41,267 nt of DNA from Gammaproteobacteria bacterium (lineage in GTDB: Bacteria; Pseudomonadota; Gammaproteobacteria; Ga0077536), in NCBI GenBank assembly GCA_040904625.1, contig JBBDTC010000001.1, positions 32 to 41,298 on the forward strand. Direction: 5' to 3'. The notes under the pieces were generated by a model. It did not search any database. It saw only the letters and a program-made list of their open reading frames with translations, and was not told the origin of the DNA. Below, piece after piece: positions 10,440-33,536 of the stretch. The translations under genes were made by a program, and so were the position numbers. Within the stretch, counting starts at the first letter, position 1; each line of letters starts with the position of its first letter.

Positions 10440-11734
10440 GCCTGAGAGACACCAAGCCGGACAAGATCGGTAAATACGAAGTCATCGACGTTCTCGGCAA
10501 AGGCTCGATGGGGGTGGTCTACAAGGGGCATGATGCCTACGTCGATCGTTTCGTCGCGATCAAGGTCGCGACGAACGCCGATGCGGATGAAGAATCCGGC
10601 AGTATGGCCAAACGCATGTTCGTCAACGAGGCGCGTTCTGCCGGGCGTCTCGACCATCCCAATATCCTCAAGGTCTACGAGGCCGGCGAGGAACAGGGAC
10701 TCCCTTACATGGTGATGGAGTTCATTGCCGGCGGTGACACGCTGCGAAGCTACTGCATGCCGGAGACGCTGCTCCCGGTCAAACGCGTCTGTGAACTCAT
10801 CCGGCAGGCCGCGGATGCCCTCGACTATGCCCATTCCATGGGCGTGCTGCACCGGGATATCAAGCCGGCCAACATCATGCTGACCGAGAACGGGATGGCC
10901 AAGCTCGGTGATTTCGGCATCGCCCGCCGTATGGGTGTCGACCAGACGCAGATCGTCGGCTGGTTCGGCTCGCCGCTGTATATGTCGCCGGAGCAGGCCC
11001 AGGACATGGAGCTCACGCCACCGTCGGATCTCTTCTCGCTAGGCTCGGTGTTCTACGAAATGCTGGCGGGCACGCCGCCTTTTGCCGCCAAGGGCCTGTC
11101 CAGTCTGATCCAGAAAGTGGTGAACGACGAACCGACGCCGTTGACCGAGCTTCGCGCTGAGGTGAGCGAGCCGGTATGGCGTGTCGTACGGAAAATGCTG
11201 GCAAAGGATCTCGCGGCCCGCTACAAGACCGGCCACGACATCGTCACCGATCTCGACAAGCTCATCGAGCAGATCGAGCGCTCACCGCTCATGCTGAGCG
11301 ACGAGCAGAAAATGGCCCGGATGAAGGAATTGGCCTTCTTCAAATCGTTTTCCAACAACGAACTCAAGGAAGTCTCGCGCGTGACGGACTGGCGCGAGTA
11401 TGCCGCCGGCGAGACGATCTTCGCCGAAGGGTCGCGCGAGCGGGCCTTCTATGTCGTCGTCGATGGGGCTGTGGCGGTCAGCATCAATGGCACGCGCATT
11501 CGGGATCTGGAGTCCGGGGAGTGCTTTGGAGAGATGGAATATCTGTCTGACGTCGGGCGCACGGCGAGCGTGCAGGCCAATCGTGACGTCACCATCGTGC
11601 GGATCGAAGGAGATTTCAAGCAATGGGCCTCGCTGCCGACGCAGGTACGCCTCAATCGCGTCTTCCAGGAGATACTGGTCGAGCGCCTGCAGGCTACCAG
11701 CAAGGAATTGGCGCGCGTCCTTGGCAGCAGGTAG
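10436..11734 (+). CDS. Hanks-type Ser/Thr protein kinase with C-terminal cyclic-nucleotide-binding domain
   Basis: GKGSMG, VAIK, HRDIKPAN, DFG, YMSPEQ; C-terminal FYVVVDGAV..GECFGEM..RTASV. ATGA overlap with the upstream gene. Confidence 0.93.
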   Translation: MSLRDTKPDKIGKYEVIDVLGKGSMGVVYKGHDAYVDRFVAIKVATNADADEESGSMAKRMFVNEARSAGRLDHPNILKVYEAGEEQGLPYMVMEFIAGGDTLRSYCMPETLLPVKRVCELIRQAADALDYAHSMGVLHRDIKPANIMLTENGMAKLGDFGIARRMGVDQTQIVGWFGSPLYMSPEQAQDMELTPPSDLFSLGSVFYEMLAGTPPFAAKGLSSLIQKVVNDEPTPLTELRAEVSEPVWRVVRKMLAKDLAARYKTGHDIVTDLDKLIEQIERSPLMLSDEQKMARMKELAFFKSFSNNELKEVSRVTDWREYAAGETIFAEGSRERAFYVVVDGAVAVSINGTRIRDLESGECFGEMEYLSDVGRTASVQANRDVTIVRIEGDFKQWASLPTQVRLNRVFQEILVERLQATSKELARVLGSR

Positions 11735-11758
11735 CACGGACCTGCGGCAGGCCTCTCA

Positions 11759-12130
11759 TCAAGTGGAGAAGCGCAACCAGGCGTAAGCCGCCCAGATCAC
11801 GGCGAGCAGGACAAGGGCCAGGAATACCGCGGCGGAACCGAGGTCCTTGGCCCGTCCTGAGAGTTCGTGATGCTCCGGGCCGATGCGATCGGCGAGTGCC
11901 TCGATGGCCGAGTTGAACAATTCACTGATGAGCACGAACAGCAGTGAGGCGATCAGAATGGCGTAATCGAGCGGACTGCGTCCGACCCAGAACACGCAGG
12001 GAAACAACACGCCCACCAGCAGGACTTCCTGACGGAATGCCGCCTCATGGTGCCAGCCGGCGCGCAGTCCCTGCATGGAATAGCCGAAAGCCTTGATGAT
12101 GCGGTCGAGGCCGCGCGCCTTGTTCGCCAT
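11759..12130 (-). CDS. dgkA: Diacylglycerol kinase (DgkA family)
   Basis: AFGYSMQGL..HEAAFRQE..ELFNSAIE..HELSGRAKDLGSAAV; three hydrophobic helices. Confidence 0.95.
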   Translation of the reverse strand: MANKARGLDRIIKAFGYSMQGLRAGWHHEAAFRQEVLLVGVLFPCVFWVGRSPLDYAILIASLLFVLISELFNSAIEALADRIGPEHHELSGRAKDLGSAAVFLALVLLAVIWAAYAWLRFST

Positions 12131-12162
12131 GCGATCGGGGTGCTGCTGCGGCTGCGGGTGAT

Positions 12163-13191
12163 TCAGAGCCTGGCGATGACCGCGTCGGCGAACGCGCGGG
12201 TGCCGAGCGTCCCCCCGAGATCGCCTGTGCGCGTGGCCGGCTCGGCCAGGGTGGCGATGATTGCCGCGCGCATGCGGCCGCCGGCCTCGATCTGGCCACA
12301 GTGTTCGAGCATCATCGCTGCTGACAGCATGAGGGCGGTCGGATTGGCTTTGTCCTGTCCTGCGATGTCCGGGGCCGAGCCATGCACGGCTTCGAAGATG
12401 GCGGCATCGCGGCCGATGTTCGCGCTCGGCGCCAGACCCAGGCCGCCGATGAGGCCGGCAACTTCGTCGGAGAGAATGTCGCCGAACATGTTGGTGGTGA
12501 GGATGATGTCGAACTGTGCGGGGTTGAGCACGAGCTGCATGGCACAGTTGTCGACGATGCGGTCCTCGAGCACGACTTGGTCCGCATAAGCCAGGGCGAC
12601 GTCCTGGACGGTTTCCAGAAACAGACCGGTGAGCGACTTGAGGATGTTGGCCTTGTGCACCACGGTGACTTTGCGGCGCCCGTGTTTGACGGCGTAATCA
12701 AAGGCGAACAGAGCGATGTTGCGGCAGGTCTCGCGGGTGAGAATGCCGGTCGCTTCGGCCACGGCATGGGGGTCGTCGCCGATGGCGATGAAATGTTCGA
12801 CACCGACGTAGAAACCGCCGATGTTCTCCCGGATCAGGACCAGGTCGACGTCGGGAAACTTACCGTCGGGCAGCAGCGATCGGCCGGGCCGGACATTGGC
12901 GTAGAGCTTGAAGGCTTCACGCAAACGCACGTTGACCGAGCGATAGCCCGAACCGACCGGGGTCGCCAGGGGCCCCTTGAGGGCGAGGCGGGTCTGACGG
13001 ATGTCGTCGAGTACGGCAGCGGGCAGCGGGTCATCGCCCTGGTCGGCGGCGGTTGCGCCGGCGGTGAACTCATGCCACTCGAACGGTACCTCGAGAGCGT
13101 CGATTACGGCCAGCGTGGCGGCAGTGATCTCCTGCCCGATACCGTCGCCGGGGAGAAGTGTGCAGGGGATGGGGGTAGAGGGCGTGCTCAT
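12163..13191 (-). CDS. Isocitrate/isopropylmalate dehydrogenase family, probably NAD-dependent isocitrate dehydrogenase
   Basis: LPGDGIG, KGPLATP, SVNVRLR, VHKANIL, NMFGDILSD, FEAVHGSAPDIAG. Start placed at ATG 13191. Confidence 0.85.
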   Translation of the reverse strand: MSTPSTPIPCTLLPGDGIGQEITAATLAVIDALEVPFEWHEFTAGATAADQGDDPLPAAVLDDIRQTRLALKGPLATPVGSGYRSVNVRLREAFKLYANVRPGRSLLPDGKFPDVDLVLIRENIGGFYVGVEHFIAIGDDPHAVAEATGILTRETCRNIALFAFDYAVKHGRRKVTVVHKANILKSLTGLFLETVQDVALAYADQVVLEDRIVDNCAMQLVLNPAQFDIILTTNMFGDILSDEVAGLIGGLGLAPSANIGRDAAIFEAVHGSAPDIAGQDKANPTALMLSAAMMLEHCGQIEAGGRMRAAIIATLAEPATRTGDLGGTLGTRAFADAVIARL

Positions 13192-13431: not shown

Positions 13432-14055
13432 ATGCTCATGGTTACCGGTCTGACCAAACGACAAGCTGAAATCCTTGCCTTGATCCGCGCCACCATCCGG
13501 CGCACCGGTATGCCTCCGACGCGCAGCGAAATCGCACAGGCCTTCGGTTTCCGTTCCGCCAACGCGGCCGAGGAACACCTGCGGGCGCTGGCCCGCAAAG
13601 GGGCCATCGAACTCCTGCCCGGTGCCTCACGCGGCATCCGTTTAGCCGACGACGAGGCTTTGCACACGCCGGGCTTGCCCGTCATCGGGCGGGTCGCGGC
13701 CGGTCAACCGCTGCTCGCTGTCGAACACATCGAAGAGTATCAACGCGTCGATCCGGGTGTGTTCCGGCCACGGGCCGATTATCTGCTGCGTGTGGCCGGC
13801 ATGAGCATGCGGGGTGCCGGGATCCTGGATGGCGATCTACTGGCCGTGCATGCGACGCGGGTGGCCAGCAATGGTCAGATCGTCGTCGCCCGGCTCGATG
13901 ACGAGGTGACCGTCAAGCGGTTCCGGCAGCGCGGCAACCGGGTACAGCTGTTGCCGGAGAATCCGGCTTTCGATCCTCTGGAAATCCTGCCCGGCAGCCA
14001 TGAACTCGTCATTGAGGGACTTGGCGTCGGCGTCCTGCGCACGCACGCGGCATGA
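13432..14055 (+). CDS. lexA: SOS repressor LexA
   Basis: [32 protein letters not shown] cleavage site, GMSM serine, VTVKR lysine. Confidence 0.97.
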
Positions 14056-14744
14056 GTCTCGACGAGTTGATGCGGCATGCCCGGATCTGGCGCGGTGGAG
14101 AGCTGCCGCCGGGCACCACGCAGGCGACCGGTTTCGCCGCTCTCGACGCGATCCTGCCCGGGCAGGGCTGGCCACAGACCGGCCTGACGGAAATCCACGC
14201 GGCGGCAACCGGTATCGGGGCCTTGCAGTTGGTGCTGCCGGCCCTGGCGGCGCTGAGCCGGCAGGGCCACTGGATCGTTTGGATCAATCCGCCCTACCAG
14301 CCCCACGCACCGGCACTCAGCGCGCAAGGCCTCGATCTGGCTCGCCTGCTGGTCGTCGATCTGCCGGCGCAGCCGGGGGCGGCCCGGGATGAGATGCTGT
14401 GGGTCTATGAGCAGGCTTTGCGCTTCACCGCCTGCGGCGCTGCCTTGGCCTGGTTCGGCCACGTCCCGTCACTGCATCTGCGTCGTCTGCAGCTCGCCGC
14501 GGAGGCGGGGAGAACCTGGGGCGTAGCCTTTCGCCCTGTCGATACGCTCGAACAGGCTTCGCCGGCGCTGCTGCGGCTTACCCTGGAGGCTGTGGCCAAC
14601 GAGATCGAGACTGGCCGCCCCGCACCGATCGAAATCACGCTGCTCAAGGCGCGAGGGGGGCGCGCTGGCCGACGTTGTCGCTTGAAGCTCGATGCAGCGC
14701 CGCAACCGGGCGACGACAGGCTGCCAGCAGCCTGTCGGACTTAG
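14052..14744 (+). CDS. imuA: Translesion synthesis accessory protein ImuA
   Basis: [34 protein letters not shown]; lies between lexA and imuB. Confidence 0.9.
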
Positions 14745-14888
14745 GGCATCGTGACGAGGCGAGTGGGAGAGCGAGGTCAGATTGGCGCGCATTGGAGGCG
14801 AATAGTGGGGCTATTTAACGAGAATGCGCGCCGATATGGACCGCTATCCCACCGCCGCAGTAGATGCGGCCTGAGTCCGACAGGCTGC
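14727..14888. mobile_element. MITE family B (162 bp)
   Basis: TIRs GCAGCCTGTCGGACTTAGG / CCTGAGTCCGACAGGCTGC, flanked by a CA direct repeat; internal palindromic arms (GGCGCGCATT / AATGCGCGCC). Confidence 0.85.
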
Positions 14889-14904
14889 CAGGGAGTATGA
14901 ATTC

Positions 14905-16485
14905 ATGGCGACGTTGATCAGGCCACCATCTTCGCGGGGACGCCCCGCCGCGCCGCTGCGCGATGTCAGCAGCCCGCAGGCAGCGGTAGCAGCACGCTGC
15001 GGGCCGCGCCAGGATGGCGGTCGACTCTGGCTGCACCTGCACCTGCCGCAGCTGCCTCTGGAGGTGCTCACCCGTGGGGTCGATACCGCGCGGGCCTGTG
15101 TCCTGGTCGATGGCGGGAATCCCCGCGGCCGGATTCTGCTCACCAATCCGCGCGCCGCGGCGTGCGGTATTCGCGCCGGTATGCCGCTGGCCGCTGCGCA
15201 TGCCCTGGGCGAGCTGATCGTCATCGAGCGCGATATGCACGCCGAACAGCAGGCGCTGCAACAGCTTTGCCTGTGGGCGGTACAGTTCACCGCCATAGTC
15301 AGCGCCGTCCCGCCGGACGGCCTGGTGCTCGAGATCAAGGGCAGTCTTCGCCTGTTCGGCGGCTTGCAGGGTTTATTGCTACGCCTGCGTCAGGGCATGC
15401 GTGAGCTCGGCTATCGGGCTGATTATGCCGTGGCCCCGACGCCGCTGGCGGCAGCGGCTTTGGCCCGTAGCGAGCCGCGCACGGTCTTGCAGGAGCTGCA
15501 CCAGCTCGTGCCTGGACTCGCCCGCTTGCCGCTGGCCGCCTTACGCCTCGAACCGGCCATGTCCCAGGCGCTCGAACAGCTCGGTGTCCGCCAGATCGGC
15601 GATTGCCGGCGCTTGCCGCGGGCGGGCCTGGCCAGGCGTCTGTCGCCCACGCTGGTGCAAATGCTCGATCGTCTTTTCGGGCAGGTCGTGGATTTGCGCC
15701 CGGCCTTCGAACTGCCGCGCCGCTTCGATGGCGAAATCGATCTGCCTTGGGAAGTGACCAGTACCCGGGGCCTGATGCGTGCCGTGGAGCCTCTTTTACA
15801 CGAACTGCACGGCTATCTCGTTGCCAACGCGGCCACGACCCGCCAGTTGCGTTGGCGTTTGATCGATCGTCAGGGGGGCCGTGAGGATTTCCAGGTCAAT
15901 TTCTCTCGCGCCGGGAGTGATCGCCGGCAGATGCTCCTGTTGATGCGGGAAACGCTCGCCCGCAAGCGCCTGGCGATGCCGGTTCGTGCCATCAGCCTGC
16001 GGGTCGATGATCTGATTTTCGGTGTCGCATCCCCGCCCCGGGATTTATTCGCCCAACGAGCATCAGAGCATGACGAGGCCTATGCCGGTTTCATCGATCG
16101 CCTGCGTGCGCGCTGTGGTGAACAGGCATTGCGCAGTCTGCGTGTGCAGGGTGGCCATCGTCCCGAATACGCTTCCGGTTGGCAGCGTCCGGTACTGACC
16201 GATGGGCGTCGAGGTCGTGTGCCGACGCCCGCCACTTGCCTCACCCGTCACCCACTGTGGCTCCTCGAGCGGCCCCTCAGACTCGACGTTCGCGGTGATC
16301 GCCCCGTCTTCGACGGGCCGCTGCGCCTGGATCCGGAGCGTGAGCGCATTCAGAGCGGCTGGTGGGATGAATCGGGCATCAAACGCGATTACTTCGTTGC
16401 CACCACCGGTCGCGGAGGACGCCTGTGGATCTATCGTGAATTGGAGGGTGGGCGACGCTGGTATTTACACGGCGTCTTCGATTGA
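14905..16485 (+). CDS. imuB: Y-family polymerase-like ImuB
   Basis: LWLHLHLPQLPLE, GIRAGMPLAAA, LEIKGSLRLFGG, PERERIQSGWWD..RDYF..WYLHGVFD. The true start may be further downstream. Confidence 0.9.
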   Translation: MATLIRPPSSRGRPAAPLRDVSSPQAAVAARCGPRQDGGRLWLHLHLPQLPLEVLTRGVDTARACVLVDGGNPRGRILLTNPRAAACGIRAGMPLAAAHALGELIVIERDMHAEQQALQQLCLWAVQFTAIVSAVPPDGLVLEIKGSLRLFGGLQGLLLRLRQGMRELGYRADYAVAPTPLAAAALARSEPRTVLQELHQLVPGLARLPLAALRLEPAMSQALEQLGVRQIGDCRRLPRAGLARRLSPTLVQMLDRLFGQVVDLRPAFELPRRFDGEIDLPWEVTSTRGLMRAVEPLLHELHGYLVANAATTRQLRWRLIDRQGGREDFQVNFSRAGSDRRQMLLLMRETLARKRLAMPVRAISLRVDDLIFGVASPPRDLFAQRASEHDEAYAGFIDRLRARCGEQALRSLRVQGGHRPEYASGWQRPVLTDGRRGRVPTPATCLTRHPLWLLERPLRLDVRGDRPVFDGPLRLDPERERIQSGWWDESGIKRDYFVATTGRGGRLWIYRELEGGRRWYLHGVFD

Positions 16486-16699: not shown

Positions 16700-16925
16700 T
16701 AACTCGCACACCTCGGCTCGATCGCGCGGTCAAACCAACAATCACGACCCGCCCAACGCGCATCCCGAGGAAACTCTGTCGGAACCGGACAGTGCACGGC
16801 CCACATAACTGAATTTGACTCATAAATGTTACGAACCGGTTATAATCGCGCCCGCTGTATCAGGGGGGGCAAACCGCGCCTGCCGCGGTTGTTGATTCAG
16901 TCAAGACAAGGTTACTCAATTGACG

Positions 16926-18674
16926 ATGAAAGCGACGAAAATCAATAATCTGTTGCCATTGCGCAATGCTGACTTCGATACGCTGGTCGAAGCCTTGGAA
17001 TACGCTGCCGAGGGTGATACCGGCTATAACTTCTACGACGGCAAGGGCGAACTGTTCGCGGTCCTGAGCTATGCAGATCTGCGCATCAAGGCACAGGCCC
17101 TGGGACGACGCCTGCTCGGGCTCGGCTGCAAGCGCGGCGCCCGCGTCGCCATCGTGGCTGAATCAGAACCGCTGTTCCATCTCTTTTTCTTCGCCTGCCA
17201 GTACGCCGGGTATATTCCTGTCGCTTTACCCGCGGGATTCCAGATCGGCGCGCGCAAGGCCTATGTCGAACAGCTCGAGCGCATGCTCGACAGTTGCGGG
17301 GCCGATCTCGCCGTTGCCCCCGAATCGCATGTGGCTTTCCTGCGCCAGGCCGTCGAACGGCTCGATCTGGTCAAGGCCGGCACGCCGGAGGAATTCGACG
17401 CCTTGCCGGAGCGCGATTGCGTGCTCGAACCGCTGCGCGCCGACGAAGTCGCTTATTTGCAGTATACGTCCGGCAGCACGCGCTTCCCGCGCGGTGTGGA
17501 GATCTCACAGCGAACCGTGATGACCAATTTGCGTGACATCGCCGTCCACGGGCTCAAAATCACGCGCGACGATCGCATGGTGGCGTGGCTACCCCTCTAC
17601 CACGATATGGGTCTGGTCGGTTTCGTGCTGCTGCCGCTGGGCAGCCAGCTTTCGGCCGATTACTTGAGCCCGCGCACCTTTGCCATGCGCCCGCGTTTGT
17701 GGTTGAAGATCATTTCCCAGAACCGCGGCACGATCTCTTCCAGCCCGCCGTTCGGCTATGCCCTGTGTGCCAAACGGCTGCGCTTGACCGATCAGGATCG
17801 CTACGACCTGAGTTCCTGGCGGGTGGCCTGTGTCGGCGCCGAACGAATCCACCCCGAACCGCTGCGCCAATTCGCCCATGTGCTCGCACCGGCCAAATTC
17901 AATCCCGACGCTTTCGTGGCCTGCTACGGCATGGCCGAATGCGCGCTGGCCATCAGCTTTGCCGAGCTCGGCACCGGCATCAGTGCGGTCAAGGTCGATA
18001 AGGAGCGTATGGCAACGACCGGCCAGGTCGAGTTGCTCGATACGAGTGCCAGTCGCGCGGAGGACAGCCTGATTTTCGTCGATTGCGGCAAGATACTGCC
18101 GAGCTTCGAGCTCGCAATCCGTGACGACAAGGGTAACGATCTGCCCGACTACCAATGCGGGCGTATCTGTCTGCGCGGCGCGAGCGTGATGAGCGGTTAT
18201 TTCCAGAATCCGACCGCCACTGCTGAAGTCCTTTCCGACGATGGCTGGCTCGATACCGGCGACATCGGCTACCGCTTCGGCGATCATGTGGTCGTCACTG
18301 CCCGTCGCAAGGACGTCATCATCGTCAACGGACGTAACATCTGGCCGCATGATCTCGAGTTCCTGGCGGAAAGCCTGCCGGGGGTACGCTTCGGTAATGT
18401 CTCCGCGTTCTCCTTCGCCGACGACAATGGGGCCGATCAGGTGGTTATGGTGGTCGAGTCGCGCGAAGTCAATCCGGCCAAGGCGCGCACCCTGATCGAC
18501 GATCTGCGCGCGCTCATCACCGCACATTTCGGCATTGCCTGCCATATCGATCTGGTGCCGCCGCGAACCCTGCCGCGAACTTCGTCCGGCAAGTTGTCGC
18601 GTTCCAAGGCCAAACAGGATTTTCTCGCACGTACGGCAGGCGTCGGCGGCAACCTCGCTGGCGCGCATGGGTGA
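16926..18674 (+). CDS. Fatty acyl-AMP ligase / acyl-ACP synthetase of the sphingolipid cluster
   Basis: YLQYTSGSTRFPRG, WLPLYHDMGLVG, CYGMAE, WLDTGDIG, LPRTSSGKLSR. Confidence 0.9.
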   Translation: MKATKINNLLPLRNADFDTLVEALEYAAEGDTGYNFYDGKGELFAVLSYADLRIKAQALGRRLLGLGCKRGARVAIVAESEPLFHLFFFACQYAGYIPVALPAGFQIGARKAYVEQLERMLDSCGADLAVAPESHVAFLRQAVERLDLVKAGTPEEFDALPERDCVLEPLRADEVAYLQYTSGSTRFPRGVEISQRTVMTNLRDIAVHGLKITRDDRMVAWLPLYHDMGLVGFVLLPLGSQLSADYLSPRTFAMRPRLWLKIISQNRGTISSSPPFGYALCAKRLRLTDQDRYDLSSWRVACVGAERIHPEPLRQFAHVLAPAKFNPDAFVACYGMAECALAISFAELGTGISAVKVDKERMATTGQVELLDTSASRAEDSLIFVDCGKILPSFELAIRDDKGNDLPDYQCGRICLRGASVMSGYFQNPTATAEVLSDDGWLDTGDIGYRFGDHVVVTARRKDVIIVNGRNIWPHDLEFLAESLPGVRFGNVSAFSFADDNGADQVVMVVESREVNPAKARTLIDDLRALITAHFGIACHIDLVPPRTLPRTSSGKLSRSKAKQDFLARTAGVGGNLAGAHG

Positions 18675-19641
18675 AACCGGGCGGGGCAGACCACATATCG
18701 TCCTGACCGGAGCGACGGGATTCATCGGCCGACACCTGCAGCGCACGCTGTGCGACAACGGCTACGACATCTCCGCTCTCGTTCGTCCAGGATCGGCCAA
18801 TACGGCCCACGTCCTGCCGGATGTGCGCGTCCGTCGCGGCGCCCTCGATGCCCCGGCCTTCCTCGATGAGGTCCTGAGCGGCGCTGATTTCGTCGTTTAT
18901 GCCGCTGGCGCGGTGCGCGGCCGCTGTGTCGACGACTTCTGGCCGGCGAATGTCGCCGGTGTTGCCAGCGTGGCCGCCGCCGCGGCACGAGTGATGACCC
19001 ATCCCCGCATCATCCTGATTTCCTCTCTGGCTGCCAGCAAGGCGCAGTTATCCGACTATGCCGCGAGCAAGAGAGCGGGTGAAGATGCACTGCGCGCTTG
19101 TGCCGGCATCGAGTGGACGATACTACGGCCACCAGCGGTCTATGGACCGGGCGATCGGGAGATGCGCCCGTTGTTTACCGCCATCAGACGTGGTCTCGCC
19201 GTCATCGTCGGCCCGCAAGGCCAGCGCCTGTCACTGCTCCATGCGGCAGACCTGGCGCGCGCCGTGGCTGCGATCATCGATGGTTTCGAGCACTGTGTGG
19301 GCGCCTGCTACGAACTCGATGACGGACATCCGCAGGGTTACGGCTGGGCGGATATCATCGCCCAGGCCAACAACGGCAGCCGTACCTTATCCGTGCGCAT
19401 ACCGCGTGCTGTTCTGGATCGACTGGCGCGCTGGAATGTCGCACTGCCGCACCGGCGGCGGCACTTGCCCATGCTGTCGCCGGGCAAGGTCCGCGAACTT
19501 TCCGAGCCCAGTTGGCTTTGCAATAATCAAGCGCTCACTGCGGCGACCGGATGGTTGCCGCGAATCCGTCTTCGTGAGGGCGTCGCGGAGCTGTTTGCCT
19601 CGCCACCGTCCGCAAGCCCGTCCGGCTGGAGCTCCCAGTGA
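18667..19641 (+). CDS. cerR: NAD-dependent epimerase/SDR family, putative ceramide reductase
   Basis: TGATGFIG, ISSLAA, YAASK, LRPPAVYGPGD; lies between the acyl ligase and ACP/spt as in the Caulobacter cluster. Confidence 0.75.
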   Translation: MGETGRGRPHIVLTGATGFIGRHLQRTLCDNGYDISALVRPGSANTAHVLPDVRVRRGALDAPAFLDEVLSGADFVVYAAGAVRGRCVDDFWPANVAGVASVAAAAARVMTHPRIILISSLAASKAQLSDYAASKRAGEDALRACAGIEWTILRPPAVYGPGDREMRPLFTAIRRGLAVIVGPQGQRLSLLHAADLARAVAAIIDGFEHCVGACYELDDGHPQGYGWADIIAQANNGSRTLSVRIPRAVLDRLARWNVALPHRRRHLPMLSPGKVRELSEPSWLCNNQALTAATGWLPRIRLREGVAELFASPPSASPSGWSSQ

Positions 19642-19886
19642 AACTCGATCATAGCGCCATAGTCGAAGAACTGATCCGGCTGCTCGAGGCAGCGTTGGGT
19701 CGGCGTCAGGCGATGTCTGCCGATACCGCCCTGATTGCCGATCTCGGGCTCGAATCCATCCAGGTCATCGAATACCTGTGCGAGGTCGAAGACCGTTTCG
19801 ATCTCGCGATTGACGAAGACACCCTGGCCGATGTCCAGACTGTCGGTGACTTGGCCGCGGTCGTGCAGCGGCTGCTGAACGGTTGA
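19638..19886 (+). CDS. Acyl carrier protein dedicated to sphingolipid synthesis
   Basis: 82 aa, acidic, DLGLESIQVIE phosphopantetheine serine motif, TVGDL; directly upstream of spt. Confidence 0.9.
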   Translation: MKLDHSAIVEELIRLLEAALGRRQAMSADTALIADLGLESIQVIEYLCEVEDRFDLAIDEDTLADVQTVGDLAAVVQRLLNG

Positions 19887-21095
19887 ATGTCCATGCGCTT
19901 GTTCGAAAAATTCAAAGCCGCCGAGACCACCCGGGCACTGCTCGAGGCGTTGCCGGTCAATCCGACCGGGGTCGTCATCGAAGAGGTATTGAGTGCAACT
20001 GAAGCAGTTGTGGGCGGGCGTCATACGATCATGGCCGGAACCAACAACTACCTCGGTCTGACGTTCGATGCGGCGGCGATTGCGGCAGGTCAGCAGGCGC
20101 TGGCCAAAGCGGGTACCGGAACGACCGGCTCGCGTATGGCCAACGGCACTTATCGTGCCCATCTCGAACTCGAAGCGGAACTCGCAGCGTTCTACGAGCT
20201 GCCTCATGCCATGGTGTTCTCGACCGGCTATGCAGCCAATCTCGGGACTCTGGTCGCCTTGCTCGGGGAAGGCGATGCGGTGCTGCTCGATGCCGAGGCC
20301 CATGCAAGTTTGTTCGACGGTTGCCGCATGAGCGGCGCCGATATCTTCCGCTTCAAACACAATGATCCCGACGGCCTGGCCAATCGCCTGCGGCGTCTGG
20401 GAGAGCGCGCGCAGAATGCGCTGATCGTGGTCGAGGGTCTGTACAGTATTCGGGGTGATTGCGCGCCGCTGCGCGAGTACGCCGCGGTCAAGGCCGAGTA
20501 CGGTGGTTATCTGTTCGTCGACGAGGCCCATTCGCTCGGCGTCTATGGCGATCGTGGGCGCGGCCTGGTTGAATCCGAAGGCATACTTGCAGAGACCGAT
20601 TTCGTTGTCGGTACGTTCAGCAAGAGTCTTGGCTCGATCGGTGGGTTTTGTGTCAGCCGTCATCCGGAACTGGCTCTTTTCCGCTATGCCAGCCGACCTT
20701 ACATCTTTACGGCATCGCCCTGCCCGTCAGTGATCGCGACCACCCGCGAAGCATTGCGCCGCATCGCCGAACAGCCGCAGCTTCGAGATCAGCTGTGGCG
20801 AAATGCGCGCTGCCTGTATACCGCGCTCGCCGGACTGGGGCTGCGACTGGGGCCGCATGTCAGCCCGGTCATCGGTATTTCATTTGCCGAGCGCGATGTT
20901 GCCTTGCGCTGCTGGCAGGGACTGCTCGAAGCAGGGGTCTATACCAATCTCATCCTTCCTCCGGCGGCGCCTGATGGCGGCAGCCTCATCCGCGTGAGTG
21001 TCACGGCTGCGCATACCGAGGCACAAATCGAGCGCATCATCAGCAGCTTCGAAAACGTCGTGCGGCAGCACGCGGCCGGCGGCTGTACAGTCTGA
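19887..21095 (+). CDS. spt: Serine palmitoyltransferase (alpha-oxoamine synthase)
   Basis: AGTNNYLGL, TTGSRMANGT, HASL, DEAHS, GTFSKSLG (PLP lysine); acp/cerR/bcerS context favours Spt over BioF. Confidence 0.85.
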   Translation: MSMRLFEKFKAAETTRALLEALPVNPTGVVIEEVLSATEAVVGGRHTIMAGTNNYLGLTFDAAAIAAGQQALAKAGTGTTGSRMANGTYRAHLELEAELAAFYELPHAMVFSTGYAANLGTLVALLGEGDAVLLDAEAHASLFDGCRMSGADIFRFKHNDPDGLANRLRRLGERAQNALIVVEGLYSIRGDCAPLREYAAVKAEYGGYLFVDEAHSLGVYGDRGRGLVESEGILAETDFVVGTFSKSLGSIGGFCVSRHPELALFRYASRPYIFTASPCPSVIATTREALRRIAEQPQLRDQLWRNARCLYTALAGLGLRLGPHVSPVIGISFAERDVALRCWQGLLEAGVYTNLILPPAAPDGGSLIRVSVTAAHTEAQIERIISSFENVVRQHAAGGCTV

Positions 21096-27804: not shown

Positions 27805-28251
27805 ATGAAACCTAAAGTCCAGCAAGAGTATGTTCAGATCCAGGATCTCGAATGGCAGCCGTTCCCGGAGGCGTTCTCGGCTGGTGGGATTCGCTGGAAA
27901 CTGCTCCACGTCTCGCCCGAATTGGGCGCGTGGACGGCCATTTTCGATTGTCCGGCCGGATCTTCATTTGCCAGTCATATCCATGTCGGGCCAGGCGAAT
28001 ACCTGCTGACCAAGGGCAAGATGGAAGTGCGCGGCGGTGCGGACGAGGGGGGTGCGACGGCCTACGAACTCGGCTACGGATACGAATCGTGCAATGCCCG
28101 GCACGACAAGACCCATTTCCCGATCGAGAGCGAATTCTACATGACCTTTCTGGGGCCTCTGCAGTTCATCAACGCCGATGGCAGCCCCCGTGCCGTAGTC
28201 GGCTGGGAGCAGGCACAGGAACTGTGGGCTGCGCAGACCGGGACGGCCTGA
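27805..28251 (+). CDS. dke1: Acetylacetone-cleaving cupin dioxygenase (Dke1 type)
   Basis: PFPEAFS.GGI.W.LLH.SPE...WTAIF.CPAGSSFASHIH.GPGEY.LTKGKMEVRGG and FYMTFLGPL closely match Acinetobacter johnsonii Dke1 as recalled; 3-His site (HIH plus ARHDKT). Confidence 0.85.
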   Translation: MKPKVQQEYVQIQDLEWQPFPEAFSAGGIRWKLLHVSPELGAWTAIFDCPAGSSFASHIHVGPGEYLLTKGKMEVRGGADEGGATAYELGYGYESCNARHDKTHFPIESEFYMTFLGPLQFINADGSPRAVVGWEQAQELWAAQTGTA

Positions 28252-28545
28252 AGCAATACGACAGGATGGCCGACGCAAACGGCTGTGTCCCGCGACGCGG
28301 CACGCGGACTTGCAATACGAGATGACTCTGCCGCAATTGCCTTTGCGCTCGTGTACGGGACATGGCTGCGCAGCCGCTTTTGCAAGCTTCCTTTACATTC
28401 GGCTACCCCTGAGCGGCCGCTGCAGCGTTGCGTTTTCTGGGGCAGCCTCATTATTCCTGGCGAAACGCGCGTGCTGGCCCCCACTCAGAAGCACCCTCGG
28501 TGCTGACAAGAGAATGAAAAGCGCAAGTCTCCCAAGAACATTACG

Positions 28546-30087
28546 TTACTCAATATTCAATCTCTTTAGTTGACGAACGAAGTTGCCGCGATCAATTCCG
28601 AACGATCTTGCTGTAGCAGCTTTATTGCCCTTGTGATGATTCAACCGGGATCGAATCAGTTGGCGTTTATAGTCATCGATGGCCTCATTCAGAGGAATGT
28701 CAATAGGTGGGGCGGCATGCTTGGCTAATAGCGGTGAACATCCATTCGAAAGTGCTTCCAGTCCAAAGTGGGTTACATCCAACTCGACAATCTTGCTCGT
28801 ATCCTGGCCGTCGCTTACGGCACGAATTACCGCTCTTGACAAGGTGTGTTCAAGTTCCCGTATATTTCCCGGCCATTTCGATTTGACCAGCCATCGTTTG
28901 GCCGCATTGCTCAGCCGGACACCTCTAACCCCCATGCGCCTGTGGTCTCTTTCTAGAATGTAGCCGGCGAGAGGCAGAATATCGTCAGGGCGGTCCCTAA
29001 GAGGAGGGAGAACCAGGGGGTAGACACTGAGGCGATGGTATAAATCGGGTCGGAAGCGCCCCTCGGCAATCGCTTTCTTCAAGTCTCTGTTGGTGGCGGC
29101 AATCAAGCGAACATCTACCCGGTGGTGCTTGTCGCTGCCAATGCGTTGAATCTCGCCATTTTGCAAGGCACGTAGCAGTTTGGACTGCACAGTAATGGGT
29201 AGCTCACCTACTTCATCAAGGAATAGCGTACCTTCGTTAGCTAGTTCAAATTTGCCTGCGCGGTTCTCTGTAGCTCCGGAGAAAGCCCCCTTTATATGGC
29301 CGAAAAGCTCACTTTCAGCCAAAGACTCGGGCAGGGCAGCACAATTCACGTACACCATCGGTTCTTGAGCTCTGCCGGAATGGCGGTGTACATAGTTTGC
29401 AATCAACTCCTTTCCTACACCTGTTTCTCCAAGAACCAGAACTGTCAGATCCGAAGCAGCCACGGTTTTGGCTTCTTTCATAAGCTGAACCATTTCGCGG
29501 CTTTCACTGATAATGTCCGTTGAAACGGCATGTGCCGTTTGACTTAGTATAATTTTCTGTTGTCTTGCAAGTTGTTCTTCAAGCCGATGAATCCAGGTCG
29601 CGGCTCTGACTGTGGCTGATGCGACACCAAGAAAAGCTTCAAAAATATCCAAGTCAAAATCATCAAAAGCGTTCGGGTTTAGGGCATCTAGGGTGACGAC
29701 TCCCCAAGGCGTGTCGTCTATGTATAACGTGGCTCCCATGCAGTCATGCACGTAGAGGTGATCCCTGGCGTTTTCAATGAGACCGTCATAAGGGTCGGGC
29801 AACTCGGATTCTGCCGCAAACCTTACGGGCTTACGGCTATCGACTATCTGAGCGAGTCGAGGGTGATTCTGGATTACAAATCGCCTGCCCATGGTGTCGG
29901 AACTCAACCCCTGGGTGGCACGGGGTATTAACAGGCGGCCCTCTTTTTCAAGCAGAGCGATTGCATCACAGGGGAAATTCCTGCGTATAACCTCCAGAAG
30001 CCGTTGGAATCTGATTTCTCTCGGCATGAATTGCGACAGATCGGCAACCACAGTGGCCATATCAAAAAAAACTGTATGCGATGTCAT
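28546..30087 (-). CDS. norR: NO-responsive sigma54 activator NorR
   Basis: GAF domain with HPRL, LPDPYDGLI, VHDCMG, TLDAL; AAA+ domain GETGVGKE, ESELFGH, GAFSGA, LFLDE, WPGNIREL; C-terminal HTH. Confidence 0.93.
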   Translation of the reverse strand: MTSHTVFFDMATVVADLSQFMPREIRFQRLLEVIRRNFPCDAIALLEKEGRLLIPRATQGLSSDTMGRRFVIQNHPRLAQIVDSRKPVRFAAESELPDPYDGLIENARDHLYVHDCMGATLYIDDTPWGVVTLDALNPNAFDDFDLDIFEAFLGVASATVRAATWIHRLEEQLARQQKIILSQTAHAVSTDIISESREMVQLMKEAKTVAASDLTVLVLGETGVGKELIANYVHRHSGRAQEPMVYVNCAALPESLAESELFGHIKGAFSGATENRAGKFELANEGTLFLDEVGELPITVQSKLLRALQNGEIQRIGSDKHHRVDVRLIAATNRDLKKAIAEGRFRPDLYHRLSVYPLVLPPLRDRPDDILPLAGYILERDHRRMGVRGVRLSNAAKRWLVKSKWPGNIRELEHTLSRAVIRAVSDGQDTSKIVELDVTHFGLEALSNGCSPLLAKHAAPPIDIPLNEAIDDYKRQLIRSRLNHHKGNKAATARSFGIDRGNFVRQLKRLNIE

Positions 30088-30137
30088 AATGTCTCATGTG
30101 TGTCAAAAAGACATGAAATAAATCATGTCATATTGTC
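30083..30137. promoter_or_regulatory. Three NorR enhancer sites (GT-N7-AC type)
   Basis: GTCATAATGTC (30083-30093), GTCAAAAAGAC (30102-30112, perfect) and GTCATATTGTC (30127-30137). Confidence 0.8.
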
Positions 30138-30179
30138 ATTGTATGATTGCAACTAAATGAAATGCAAAGAAAATAATCC

Positions 30180-30194
30180 TGGCATGATTTTAGC
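30180..30194 (+). promoter_or_regulatory. Sigma54 -24/-12 promoter of the nirK operon
   Basis: TGGCATGATTTTAGC has exact GG-N10-GC spacing, lies downstream of the NorR sites and an AT-rich spacer, and ends 36 bp before the nirK ATG. Confidence 0.8.
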
Positions 30195-30230
30195 GATGTT
30201 TACGGAAGAACATACAAAAGGGCATCAACA

Positions 30231-31169
30231 ATGAAGGCGTTTTTCAAACACATTCTCCTCGCCACTGCAGTCCTCGCCTCTCCAGTAATTTTCGCGGAAG
30301 CCATCAAAGTGGACATGACCGTCAAAGAAGTGGATGTGGTGGTGGACAATGCCGGCACCACGCAACGCATGTGGACGTATAACGGCACTATCCCCGGTCC
30401 GCTGGTGCGGGTGAAAGAAGGAGATGTGGTGGACTTCACGCTGTTTAACGATCCGGACAACGAACAAAGTCATTCCATGGATTTTCACGCCGCCCGGGCA
30501 GACGTCCTCGACGAGTTCGAATCCATCAAGCCGGGAAAAACCAAACAATTCACCTTTGAAGCTGAATACCCAGGGGTATTCATTTACCACTGTGGCTCCG
30601 ACTCCATGGCAGAGCACATCGGCCGCGGCATGTACGGTGTGATCATCGTCGATCCCAAGGAGGGCTACAGTGAAAGTTTTCCGGAGCCTGACCGGGAGTA
30701 TGTGCTCATACAGGGCGACTTGTTCGAAGCGGGCACCTCCGCTGACGACATGAAAATGGGCAACGGTTGGAAAGGGGTTCTCGTCAACGGCAGGCAATTC
30801 CACTACGACCCGGTCCATGATCCCAATGCCAGCCAGACCCTGGAAAGTAAGCCTGGTGAGCGGGTGCGCATCCATTTCGTCAATGCCATGATCAATAGTT
30901 CCGCCGCCTTTCACCCCATCGCCGGTATCTGGGAACAGGTGTGGGATAACGGCAACCCGAAAAATATCGCCTGGGGACTGCAAACCGTTGAGGTCCCGCC
31001 CTCCCATGGCCTAACCCTTGACCTCATCAGTCCCGCCGACCGTGCCACCAATAACGCTCTGGTGGATCACCGTATGAAGCACGCTTTGAACGGCGCCATC
31101 ACAGTACTGATGAACCATGCCGATGCCGATAAAGACAAGGGCCGCGGCGACCAGCTTATCCTGCGCTGA
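30231..31169 (+). CDS. nirK: Copper nitrite reductase, Nitrosomonas europaea type
   Basis: Signal peptide; HSMDFH, YHCG..HIGRGM, FHPIAGIW, LVDH (T1/T2 Cu ligands, catalytic Asp and His). YDPVHD, KPGERVRI and C-terminal GRGDQLILR resemble N. europaea NirK as recalled. Confidence 0.9.
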   Translation: MKAFFKHILLATAVLASPVIFAEAIKVDMTVKEVDVVVDNAGTTQRMWTYNGTIPGPLVRVKEGDVVDFTLFNDPDNEQSHSMDFHAARADVLDEFESIKPGKTKQFTFEAEYPGVFIYHCGSDSMAEHIGRGMYGVIIVDPKEGYSESFPEPDREYVLIQGDLFEAGTSADDMKMGNGWKGVLVNGRQFHYDPVHDPNASQTLESKPGERVRIHFVNAMINSSAAFHPIAGIWEQVWDNGNPKNIAWGLQTVEVPPSHGLTLDLISPADRATNNALVDHRMKHALNGAITVLMNHADADKDKGRGDQLILR

Positions 31170-31177
31170 GCGGGGGA

Positions 31178-31879
31178 ATGGACATGCAACGAATGAACTT
31201 GGCAGTCCTGCTGGTCGTTGCGGGGACGCTCCACTTCGGCGACGCAGTGGCTGGCGGCAAGGAGCTAGTAGAGGCCAACTGCACAGCGTGCCATACCCTT
31301 GAACGTCCCGACTACGACATGCTGGGACATGCGGAGCGCATCTCCCGCAAAGGCCCTCCTCTGTACTTCGCCGGCAATAAGTTCCAAGCCGCCTGGCTTG
31401 AAAGTTGGCTGAAGAATCCGGTGCGCATCCGCCCTGCCGGAGTATTCCCGCCCGCCGCGGTGAAAAGCACCGGCGGCGGTGATGTGATAGACCCTGACGC
31501 ATTGCAGGACCATCCCGTCCTCCCCGCACAGGAAGCACAGCAGGCTACCGAATATCTGATGAGTCTGCGCCCCAACGACGACCTGATCGCCGCAGTCAAT
31601 TACGAATCCGGCACTATCGCCAAACGCATGGGCGAGCTCAATTTCACCAAGTTCAATGGTTGCGATGCTTGTCACAGCGATGGTCCTGGCTACGGCGGCT
31701 TGTCCGGTCCGGAACTACACACGGCCTGGCAACGCCTGCAGCCGAAATTCATCGCCTCATTCATCGCCAACCCGGTGGCCTGGGATCCTCATAGCCTGAT
31801 GCCGAGGACTGGTCTCAATGACAGTGCCGTGGAGCGACTCGCCAATTACTTGAAACTGATCGGGGAGGAGCAGCCATGA
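31178..31879 (+). CDS. ncgB: Diheme c-type cytochrome (NcgB-like)
   Basis: Signal peptide, CTACH and CDACH, distal LMP. Confidence 0.78.
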   Translation: MDMQRMNLAVLLVVAGTLHFGDAVAGGKELVEANCTACHTLERPDYDMLGHAERISRKGPPLYFAGNKFQAAWLESWLKNPVRIRPAGVFPPAAVKSTGGGDVIDPDALQDHPVLPAQEAQQATEYLMSLRPNDDLIAAVNYESGTIAKRMGELNFTKFNGCDACHSDGPGYGGLSGPELHTAWQRLQPKFIASFIANPVAWDPHSLMPRTGLNDSAVERLANYLKLIGEEQP

Positions 31880-32244
31880 AAATTCCAGCAAATTTCTTTG
31901 CCATTCTGCTACTGGTGAGCGTCCTTTCTGCCCATGCAGAAGATGCCGCTCATGGGGACGTTCTTTACAAAATTTATTGCACTCAATGCCACGGGGTGGA
32001 GGGCAATGGCGACGGCATCAACGTCCCCGCAATGTCAGTTCAGCCCCGCAACCACCGTGATAGGGGGGAAATGTCGGCTCGCACCGATGCCGACTTGTTC
32101 AAGGCGGTAAAGGAAGGGGGTAAAAGCATCAACAAATCTGTACTTATGCCACCCTGGAGCGCCACCCTGAGCGACCATGACATCAACGCACTGGTTCGCT
32201 ACATGCGGCAACTGTGCTGCCAGTCTGGAGACGGATTACCATGA
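31876..32244 (+). CDS. ncgC: Monoheme c-type cytochrome (NcgC-like)
   Basis: Signal peptide, CTQCH, LMPPW; ATGA overlaps on both sides. Confidence 0.78.
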   Translation: MKIPANFFAILLLVSVLSAHAEDAAHGDVLYKIYCTQCHGVEGNGDGINVPAMSVQPRNHRDRGEMSARTDADLFKAVKEGGKSINKSVLMPPWSATLSDHDINALVRYMRQLCCQSGDGLP

Positions 32245-33293
32245 TCAAGCAAGCATTAATTGTTGTTATGGGTGTGCTTTTTGCAGCGCTGCAGGCAGTT
32301 GCTGCGCCACACAAGTTTGAGTTGACTATTGATGAGGTAGATCTGGAAGTGGCGCCGGGTTTCAGCGCCAAAGTATGGGCGTTTAATGGCCAGGTGCCAG
32401 GCCCCCTCATTCATGTAAGGGAAGGGGATGCACTGGAGGTAACGGTCCACAATAACAGCACTCTCAACCACACCATCCATTGGCATGGTGTCTACCAGAC
32501 GAACACCTGGCCCCAGGACGGAGTGCCTGATGTTACCCAGTTGGGAATCGAGCCGGGAGAAAGCTTCACCTATAAGTTCGTCGTGAACAAACCCGGCACC
32601 CTTTGGTATCATTGCCACGTCAACGTTTCTGAACACGTCGGTCTGCGGGGCATGTGGGGACCGCTGATCGTCGATCCCAAGGAACCCATAGCGCTGGAAA
32701 AGGACGTCACCAAGGACGCCATCCTGATGTTTTCCGGTTGGAATTCAGAGGTGGCACAGGAATATGGAACAGGCGGCAAGCCAGGCGAGGTCATCAACTA
32801 CTTTTCCATCAACGGCAAGTCTTTTCCTATGACTCAGCCATTGCAAGTAGAAAAGGGCGATGTCGTGCGACTACGGCTGATCGGCGCCAGCATTCCCACG
32901 GCTTTCCATACTCACGGTCATGACATGCTGATTACCCATAAGGATGGCTTGCCACTGAAAAACCCCATCGAGGCGGATGTGGTACCTCTGCAACCGGGGG
33001 AGCGCTACGACGTAATGATGGAAATGAACAACCCCGGACTATGGATGACCCACGACCACATCGAACATCACACGACCAATAATGGCAAGGATCACGGTGG
33101 ATCGATGTTGGTTATCGAATATAAGGATGTGGAAAAACCGGAGTGGTATATGTGGAAGGATCTGGACGCGGAAACGGATTTCTATATGGTGGAATCCATG
33201 GCTAAACCCCATGGGATGCACAATATTGACGCTTTCAAAGGATTTGAGCCCGCTTCAGAGCGGCGCCGTCGGTCTGTGAGTCACGAGCACTGA
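32241..33293 (+). CDS. ncgA: Two-domain multicopper oxidase (NcgA/Pan1-like)
   Basis: HTIHWHG, WYHCH..EHVGLRGM (T1 Cu in domain 1), FHTHGH, THDHIEHH; signal peptide. Confidence 0.82.
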   Translation: MIKQALIVVMGVLFAALQAVAAPHKFELTIDEVDLEVAPGFSAKVWAFNGQVPGPLIHVREGDALEVTVHNNSTLNHTIHWHGVYQTNTWPQDGVPDVTQLGIEPGESFTYKFVVNKPGTLWYHCHVNVSEHVGLRGMWGPLIVDPKEPIALEKDVTKDAILMFSGWNSEVAQEYGTGGKPGEVINYFSINGKSFPMTQPLQVEKGDVVRLRLIGASIPTAFHTHGHDMLITHKDGLPLKNPIEADVVPLQPGERYDVMMEMNNPGLWMTHDHIEHHTTNNGKDHGGSMLVIEYKDVEKPEWYMWKDLDAETDFYMVESMAKPHGMHNIDAFKGFEPASERRRRSVSHEH

Positions 33294-33449
33294 GTGCGAT
33301 CGGCGGGCCCTAAGTAATCGCTGCTGCGTCGGAGCAGTATGCAGGCGGGCAGATTGCCGCCTATCGTTTGGCCTCGTTGCCGGCGAAGTGTGTACCAGCA
33401 CGTGACCCAATGCTGAAAATCAGCGAGAATGGCGTCCGTTTCACGAGCC

Positions 33450-33536
<87 letters not shown>

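Follow-up and report, generated by a model that had tools for sequence, protein, structure and literature searches.

An acquired nirK-ncgBCA operon under predicted NorR control and its possible role in nitric oxide oxidation

The norR-nirK-ncgBCA block and its control region

We analysed a stretch of 41,267 nucleotides (nt) of DNA from a gammaproteobacterium (GenBank assembly GCA_040904625.1, contig JBBDTC010000001.1), referred to here at its full length as the window. It holds norR, whose product is predicted to sense nitric oxide (NO), divergent from a tightly packed operon, nirK-ncgB-ncgC-ncgA (30231-33293, + strand), that encodes a copper nitrite reductase, a dihaem and a monohaem cytochrome c, and a two-domain multicopper oxidase. 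A first-pass annotation, made from the sequence of the window, had placed the five genes in just this way, and its description of norR facing away from four packed genes for exported proteins holds, since all four operon proteins have signal-peptide-like N-termini. One start codon needed revision: the open reading frame (ORF) listed for ncgA begins at a GTG at 32214, which is probably 27 nt too early, and the likelier start is the ATG at 32241, which creates an ATGA overlap with ncgC and gives intergenic gaps in the operon of +8, -4 and -4 nt.

The regulator gene, norR (28546..30087, - strand), encodes a protein with the GAF, AAA+ and helix-turn-helix arrangement of an NO-sensing sigma-54 activator. 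The protein scores 684 bits against the equivalog model NF003451 over residues 10-512 (cut-off 476), matches the Pfam domains GAF, Sigma54_activat and AAA_lid_14, and has a Walker A motif at residue 220 and a GAFSGA loop at residue 267. The non-haem iron residues of Escherichia coli NorR, which we take to be R75, D96, D99, C113 and D131, find their counterparts at offsets of +2 or +3 in R77, D98, D101, C116 and D134 of the window protein. Each of these five putative iron-ligand residues is invariant or has one exception among 45 aligned NorR rows, which agrees with the first-pass description of the GAF iron-ligand motifs as intact.

The first gene of the operon, nirK (30231..31169, + strand), encodes a copper nitrite reductase of the Nitrosomonas type that has a predicted signal peptide. 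Among solved structures it matches PDB 4kns (entry titled 'Multicopper oxidase type 1', which we take to be Nitrosomonas europaea NirK) with 349 bits over residues 25-312, and many other NirK chains with 90-178 bits. In an alignment of NirK relatives, residues H81, D84, H86, H120, C121, H129, M134, H228 and H280 are invariant, so that the His/Cys/Met and Asp/His columns of NirK are conserved. Against the classical model TIGR02376 the protein reaches 170 bits, under the cut-off of 296; a divergent class of NirK that includes the N. europaea protein and stands outside the classical NirK classes has been described (PMC4770552).

The second gene, ncgB (31178..31879, + strand), encodes a periplasmic dihaem cytochrome c with CxxCH motifs at residues 35 and 162 and matches to the Pfam domains Cytochrom_C and Cytochrome_CBB3. 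It is overlapped by 4 nt by ncgC (31876..32244, + strand), whose product, a periplasmic monohaem cytochrome c, has one CxxCH, at residue 35, and is also recognised by Pfam. The last gene, ncgA (32241..33293, + strand), encodes the two-domain multicopper oxidase, which contains the Pfam domains Cu-oxidase_3 and Cu-oxidase_2 and matches two-domain multicopper oxidases in the PDB, 2zwn with 438 bits and 3g5w, presumably an N. europaea protein, with 389 bits. NcgA has four HxH motifs (HWH at 89, HCH at 133, HTH at 232 and HDH at 280), and the predicted ligands for both a trinuclear O2-reducing site and a type-1 copper are present.

The spacer between norR and nirK is 143 nt long, and we aligned it with the spacers of 44 related loci that also have a divergent norR (45 sequences). 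Three TGT-N7-ACA blocks are positionally conserved in this alignment, with box-to-box steps of about 19-21 and then 25-26 nt. In the window, box 1 (30082..30094, + strand; TGTCATAATGTCT) overlaps the norR start codon and is imperfect, with TC in place of the AC seen in relatives (consensus tGTCAT....ACA); box 2 (30101..30113, + strand; TGTCAAAAAGACA) is a perfect GT-N7-AC (consensus TGTc.t....ACA); and box 3 (30126..30138, + strand; TGTCATATTGTCA) is again imperfect, TC replacing AC (consensus TGT.......ACA). Between the boxes and the promoter lies an A/T-rich element (30158..30167, + strand) whose columns, Tgaaa..cAA, are conserved across the 45 spacers; it may be a bending site for integration host factor (IHF), an assignment made by analogy with the E. 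coli norV promoter. A sigma-54 -24/-12 promoter follows at 30180..30194 (+ strand; TGGCATGATTTTAGC) and aligns with TGGCacG..t.TTG in the 44 relatives, its -12 element being TAGC rather than TTGC or TTGA. The layout of boxes, A/T-rich element and -24/-12 promoter resembles what we take to be that of the E. coli norR-norVW region.

The pattern TGGCAYN5WWGC has a single match in the 41-kb window, 36 nt upstream of the nirK ATG, and is a loose one, with 0.9 matches expected by chance in a sequence of this length; the promoter call rests on position and on conservation in relatives, and not on the pattern match alone. A DNA profile of the 44 related loci, from which the window was left out, found one match in the whole assembly, and this was the norR-nirK spacer (E 2.2e-7). 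The host genome also has rpoN (497 bits). When the genome was searched by regular expression for two boxes together with a promoter, five matches came up, all in GC-rich sequence and without profile support, which we took as chance. The first-pass proposal of NorR/sigma-54 control is supported by the boxes and promoter conserved in the window and the 44 loci, by the presence of rpoN and by the uniqueness of the profile match. That nirK-ncgBCA is a target of NorR and sigma-54 is, as a prediction, well supported, and as such a target the operon would most likely be induced by NO.

Insertion beside tRNA-Leu and the enzymes of the host genome

The five genes make up an inserted island of about 5.2 kb (28253..33449, ends approximate) that is recognised by its GC content and by comparison with congeners. 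At 53.5%, its GC content lies below that of the two flanks (61.9% and 63.5%) and of the genome as a whole (64.2%). The genome is represented by an assembly of 3.97 Mb in 352 contigs that is 93.4% complete, and the five sequencing runs on record for the stretch hold DNA of sediment metagenomes from two studies. In the three same-genus genomes compared (L132-L134), a cupin gene is followed by rnr across a gap of only 260-320 nt. In the window the cupin gene ends at 28251, similarity to the congeners breaks at about 28241-28252 and returns at about 33433-33450, and the 3' end of a tRNA-Leu(CAG) gene located with ARAGORN (33450..33536, - strand) abuts the island. There is no integrase gene among the ORFs of 28253-33449, no convincing direct or inverted terminal repeat at the island ends, and no second copy of the tRNA-Leu(CAG) 3' end in the window. 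The conclusion that the norR-nirK-ncgBCA block is a horizontally acquired insertion is well supported.

The best matches of NirK had suggested a relative of the Halieaceae as host, and we rejected this assignment. The window's NirK type occurs in none of five congeners. Of 80 further genomes from the host's family only 4 carry it, and none has a NirK of 86% identity; the resemblance belongs to the island and not to the host.

The first-pass annotation had also recorded that norB, norVW and hmp are missing from the window, and the same is true across the assembled contigs of the whole genome. A tblastn search of the assembly with a cNorB (Haliea sp. E1-2-M8) and a qNorB (Sediminihaliea), both of which had been checked against solved Nor structures, gave no match at E<=1e-3, and the haem-copper oxidases of the assembly are of the aa3 and cbb3 types only. 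Searches of the assembly for Hmp, NorV, globin, truncated globin and Hcp found none of them, NirS (best match 29 bits) and NosZ were not found in it either, and none of its eight molybdoenzymes reaches the NarG, NapA or Nas cut-offs. A denitrification pathway, in the sense of nitrate, NO and N2O reductases alongside Nir, was not found in the assembly; with the genome 93.4% complete, the denitrification genes are probably, though not provably, absent. No FNR-type factor is encoded beside the operon, and the genome has two NnrS genes. A co-regulated NO reductase elsewhere, which the annotation had allowed for, was not seen, and the enhancer profile gave no second NorR site in the assembly. Judged by recognisable gene content, nirK-ncgBCA appears, with good support, to be the only NO-touching enzyme set in the host genome.

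Two of five congeners encode a qNor-like protein of 774-782 amino acids (aa), and the other three, which are 95-100% complete, have only matches of the aa3/cbb3 type; with three of five lacking a NorB-like match, the absence of NorB is therefore in character for the genus. Two orphan chaperone-like genes lie at the very start of contig C248 of the host assembly (L119:877-3897), one of them norQ/cbbQ-like and of the AAA+ type, the other norD-like and of the VWA type. The norQ-like gene is preceded by a 216-codon frame that matches nothing in Pfam or NCBIfam and does not resemble NorB.

Elsewhere in the window, positions 13432-16485 hold lexA and imuA genes and then an ORF of 526 aa that matches no NCBIfam model at E<=1e-10, an arrangement that looks like a LexA-controlled mutagenesis cassette. 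Positions 16920-21095 hold genes for a fatty acyl-AMP ligase and a serine palmitoyltransferase (NF047599, 577 bits, above cut-off), whose presence suggests sphingolipid synthesis in the host bacterium.

Distribution, regulators and co-occurring enzymes among carriers

A scan for NirK relatives, with one genome per species, matched 388 stretches, and the carrier counts given here rest on the best 80 of these 388. Neighbouring genes in the 80 loci were called by tblastn with the window proteins, and the leftover neighbours by clustering and Pfam scans. The order nirK-ncgB-ncgC is found in all 80 loci and ncgA is present in 76, the other four ending at a contig edge. The norR-nirK-ncgBCA arrangement, for which the annotation had proposed a survey of other genomes, is not unique to the window: a divergent norR is present in 45 of the 80 loci. 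In 16 loci norR is missing and an Rrf2/NsrR-like gene adjoins the cluster, and 15 have no regulator of either the NorR or the Rrf2/NsrR-like kind, five of these with too little upstream DNA. A co-directional NorR-like gene (44-51% identity) lies upstream of nirK in four loci (L021, L052, L053 and L085), and L052 and L053 encode between this gene and nirK a 144-aa protein without family, a third regulatory layout. The NirK nearest to that of the window (86% identity) is found in L014 (MAG101), where no norR or Rrf2 gene was found upstream and whose genome has Hmp above cut-off.

By record title the carriers include Gamma-, Beta- and Alphaproteobacteria, Campylobacteraceae and one metagenome-assembled genome (MAG) labelled Verrucomicrobiaceae, and from this spread the module has evidently moved between lineages. 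Cultivable carriers are Haliea sp. E1-2-M8, Sediminihaliea albiluteola, Denitromonas halophila and Cognatazoarcus halotolerans. In a NirK tree, built by a quick method with SH-aLRT support only, the window sequence falls together with those of two Haliea genomes (support 83), and the NorR/Rrf2 label changes 3 times, against 14.3 times in shuffles, a clustering that can be explained by relatedness alone.

The surroundings of the cluster vary. NnrS is a neighbour in 8 of the 80 loci and a TonB-dependent receptor in 6, and five (L038, L042, L063, L068 and L079) carry Fe/Mn superoxide dismutase genes no more than 7 kb from the cluster. Directly downstream of ncgA, six loci (L015, L018, L027, L034, L074 and L085) encode a conserved 367-aa protein without a Pfam family, exemplified by L034:10158-11261, which may be a further member of the module. 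Beyond this gene in L034 (Sediminihaliea albiluteola), at 11400-12750, is a convergent qNorB gene. A Pseudohongiella MAG has a second, distant NirK-like gene (31% identity; L083:2658-3479) and NnrS just past norR.

For the co-occurrence survey, NorB (cNor or qNor) was accepted in carrier genomes at E<=1e-12 and cd1 NirS-family proteins at E<=1e-40. PF00115, tried as a NorB marker on 40 carrier genomes, failed to separate NorB from oxidases, and a cNorB protein query over all 80 genomes was adopted for that reason. Most of the carrier genomes are MAGs of unknown completeness, so that the absence of a single gene from one of them is weak evidence. In the survey the cluster was not tied to a lack of Nor, NorB being present in 55 of the 80 carriers. 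NirS-family proteins were found in 34 of the 80, including 20 of the 45 that are linked to NorR, and 21 carriers have neither NorB nor NirS; the 34 carriers that also have NirS argue that the NirK of carriers is not simply their respiratory nitrite reductase. NorB was not found in 14 of the 45 NorR-linked carriers, and among these 14 all are without NorV and 13 are without Hmp above cut-off. Three separate Pseudohongiella-type species lack NorB, Hmp and NorV together, a triple absence that is harder to dismiss than single ones.

Known systems, proposed function and alternatives

The operon shares its four families (NirK, NcgA, and a dihaem and a monohaem cytochrome c) with the ncgABC-nirK cluster of N. 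europaea and Nitrobacter, and both are under an NO- or nitrite-responsive regulator. As the first-pass annotation had noted, regulator and gene order differ from the N. europaea version: nirK comes first in the window and in all 80 loci, whereas the N. europaea order is ncgA-B-C-nirK, and the activator NorR with its sigma-54 promoter stands here in place of the repressor NsrR (PMC4940428). The hosts differ as well, being nitrifiers (Nitrosomonas and Nitrobacter) in the one case and a heterotroph-like sediment bacterium with a recent insertion in the other. In the available texts, the role of ncgABC-nirK is described as not fully elucidated (PMC6967387), nitrite tolerance and consumption of nitrogen oxides are reported as links of the nitrifier cluster, a nirK-ncg cluster has been seen in Zetaproteobacteria (PMC3603346), and PMC6478695 still treats the enzyme by which nitrifiers oxidise NO as unknown and discusses NirK as a candidate for it.

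The wiring of the operon has its closest parallels in two other groups of systems. NorR-sigma54 regulons, represented by E. coli norVW, Ralstonia norAB and Pseudomonas/Vibrio hmp, have norR divergent from its target, three GT-N7-AC boxes, an element at the IHF-site position and a -24/-12 promoter, all as in the window; their targets are cytoplasmic or membrane NO reductases or dioxygenases, whereas the target here is a group of periplasmic copper proteins and cytochromes whose first member is a nitrite reductase. The NorR targets listed in the available text of PMC1274295 are the NO-removing or NO-related genes norA/norB, norVW, hmp, hcp, dnrN and nnrS, and nirK is not in that list. In the control of nir genes in denitrifiers (DNR/NnrR with nirS/nirK; Neisseria NsrR-aniA), an NO-responsive factor acts on a nitrite reductase gene, as here; in those organisms, however, nor is co-regulated and FNR-type oxygen control is added, whereas no nor, nar, nap or nos was found in the host assembly. 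The pairing of NorR, a dedicated detoxification sensor, with a NirK-led operon is unusual, and so is its occurrence in genomes in which no Nor, Hmp or nitrate reductase was found.

Read from its sequence, the block suggests a role in the removal of NO. In the mechanism that we favour, to which we give slightly less than an even chance, NirK and NcgBCA would oxidise periplasmic NO to nitrite with O2 as the acceptor. NO would bind the GAF-domain iron of NorR and turn the operon on, whatever the oxygen level, and the four exported proteins would then act on periplasmic NO under oxic or micro-oxic conditions. NO might enter either through NirK working in reverse or at a copper site of NcgA directly, and the electrons would pass by way of the c-type cytochromes to O2 at the NcgA trinuclear copper site, for a net reaction of 4 NO + O2 + 2 H2O -> 4 NO2- + 4 H+. 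For a host living in sediment, nitrifiers and denitrifiers nearby would be the source of the NO.

We favour NO oxidation because an NO sensor whose only target made NO without a sink would be harmful. The NorR wiring of the four-gene core offers an independent argument for an NO-directed function, and a function in the presence of O2 is indicated because the operon always carries a predicted O2-reducing oxidase. The same chemistry, in which a copper centre oxidises NO to nitrite and O2 finally takes up the electrons, has been proposed for the nitrifier NO oxidoreductase, for which NirK and nitrosocyanin are candidates (PMC6478695, PMC6967387), and also for ceruloplasmin, which has been termed an 'NO oxidase / nitrite synthase'; the proposed nitrifier enzyme would serve energy conservation, whereas the role of the window operon would be detoxification in a heterotroph. 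Nitrobacter, described in the available text of PMC5080386 as having nirK-ncgABC and no N2O-production genes, consumes NO, and does so more when ncgABC is induced; an NO-consuming role of nirK/ncgABC has already been proposed for it there.

Several considerations weigh against NO oxidation, beginning with the direction of catalysis, which is not readable from sequence. The closest solved relative is a nitrite reductase, presumably active as such in vitro. The E0' of the NO2-/NO couple, about +0.37 V, is above the typical potentials of type-1 copper and cytochrome c, so that the first step would be uphill, and the cbb3 oxidase present in the host may itself reduce some NO. The control region of the window deviates from consensus in the -12 element and in NorR boxes 1 and 3, and the norQ/norD-like pair stands at the very start of its contig in an assembly of 352 contigs that is incomplete by almost 7%. 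Beyond the host, the 55 carriers with NorB, the 34 with NirS and the four loci (L026, L034, L062 and L084) that have a qNorB gene next to the cluster, within a few kb on the downstream side of ncgA, place the module within ordinary denitrification in many hosts. A lack of Nor is not unusual in itself, since about 29% of 249 genomes with NirK are reported to be without nor (PMC4770552). Finally, the 'paradox' that the first-pass annotation had seen in an NO sensor inducing an NO producer was overstated: in many denitrifiers nirK and nirS are as a matter of routine under DNR, NnrR or NsrR, each of which responds to NO or nitrite (PMC1274295), and because NO-responsive nir control is the rule there, NO induction alone does not imply NO removal.

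The same observations can be read as the signature of a NirK that works forward. NO would then trigger the reduction of nitrite to NO by a NirK that receives its electrons from NcgB and NcgC, either as a shortened form of respiration or to detoxify nitrite, as was first proposed for N. europaea; the NO would exit by diffusion, into neighbouring cells or through cbb3, and NcgA would serve only as an O2 scavenger or for electron balance. Membership of the protein in the nitrite reductase family speaks for this, as do the common activation of nirK or nirS by NO-/nitrite-responsive regulators, the frequency of NirK without Nor, the occurrence of NorB in 55 of 80 carriers and the reported link of the N. 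europaea cluster to nitrite tolerance. We nevertheless regard forward catalysis as unlikely. Neither a known NO-taking enzyme nor a nitrate reductase was found in the host assembly, and NorR responds to NO and not to nitrite or low O2, so that a toxic product would induce its own production. Moreover, NirS is already present in 34 of the 80 carriers, and nirK is absent from the NorR targets described in the available text of PMC1274295.

It is less probable still that NcgA, with NcgB and NcgC, forms an unrecognised periplasmic NO reductase (NO to N2O) and, with NirK, a self-contained module from nitrite to N2O. The four genes do stand together in 76 of the 80 loci, with contig ends accounting for the other four, and nirK of N. 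europaea is harmful in ncgABC mutants (PMC5080386), which would fit the removal of the NirK product by NcgABC; however, NcgA has the full predicted ligand set of an O2-reducing multicopper oxidase, no centre of the NO-reductase type is recognisable in it, and many carriers also have a real NorB. Ordinary denitrification, with nor and perhaps nar or nap under NorR co-regulation in the unassembled 7% of the genome, is the most improbable of the alternatives: the fragmented assembly and the norQ/norD-like pair at a contig start leave room for it, as do the qNor-like protein of two congeners and the nirS and norCB genes of the closest cultured carrier, Haliea sp. E1-2-M8, but the frame before the norQ-like gene has neither family nor NorB similarity, three nearly or fully complete congeners are also without NorB-like matches, the enhancer profile gives no second NorR site in the assembly, and this reading needs Nar, Nap, NirS, Nos, Hmp, NorV and Hcp to be missing together.

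A NorR-controlled nirK-ncg operon was not found described in the full-text literature, a scope that leaves subscription journals and regulon databases outside, and for this reason we rate norR-nirK-ncgBCA as a new regulatory and gene-order variant of the known nitrifier cluster; the idea of NO oxidation is itself not new. A wider proposal, which we offer tentatively and with more doubt than confidence, is that the block may be a mobile, self-contained periplasmic NO oxidase, that the same core may be the NO-oxidising activity of Nitrosomonas and Nitrobacter, and that in heterotrophs it may constitute a third bacterial NO defence next to flavohaemoglobin and the NO reductases.

The interest of the variant lies in where it places a familiar set of genes. 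In the available literature both the role of ncgABC and the enzyme that takes NO to nitrite in nitrifiers are treated as unresolved, and here at least 45 species-level genomes connect the four-gene core to NorR, a sensor dedicated to NO. In 13 of the 14 NorR-linked genomes without NorB, as in the host genome, the core is the only recognisable NO-related enzyme set. The variant moves the question of NO oxidation into faster-growing, cultivable heterotrophs, and if the module does oxidise NO, the nirK counts of marine and sediment surveys would in part represent NO sinks and not denitrifiers.

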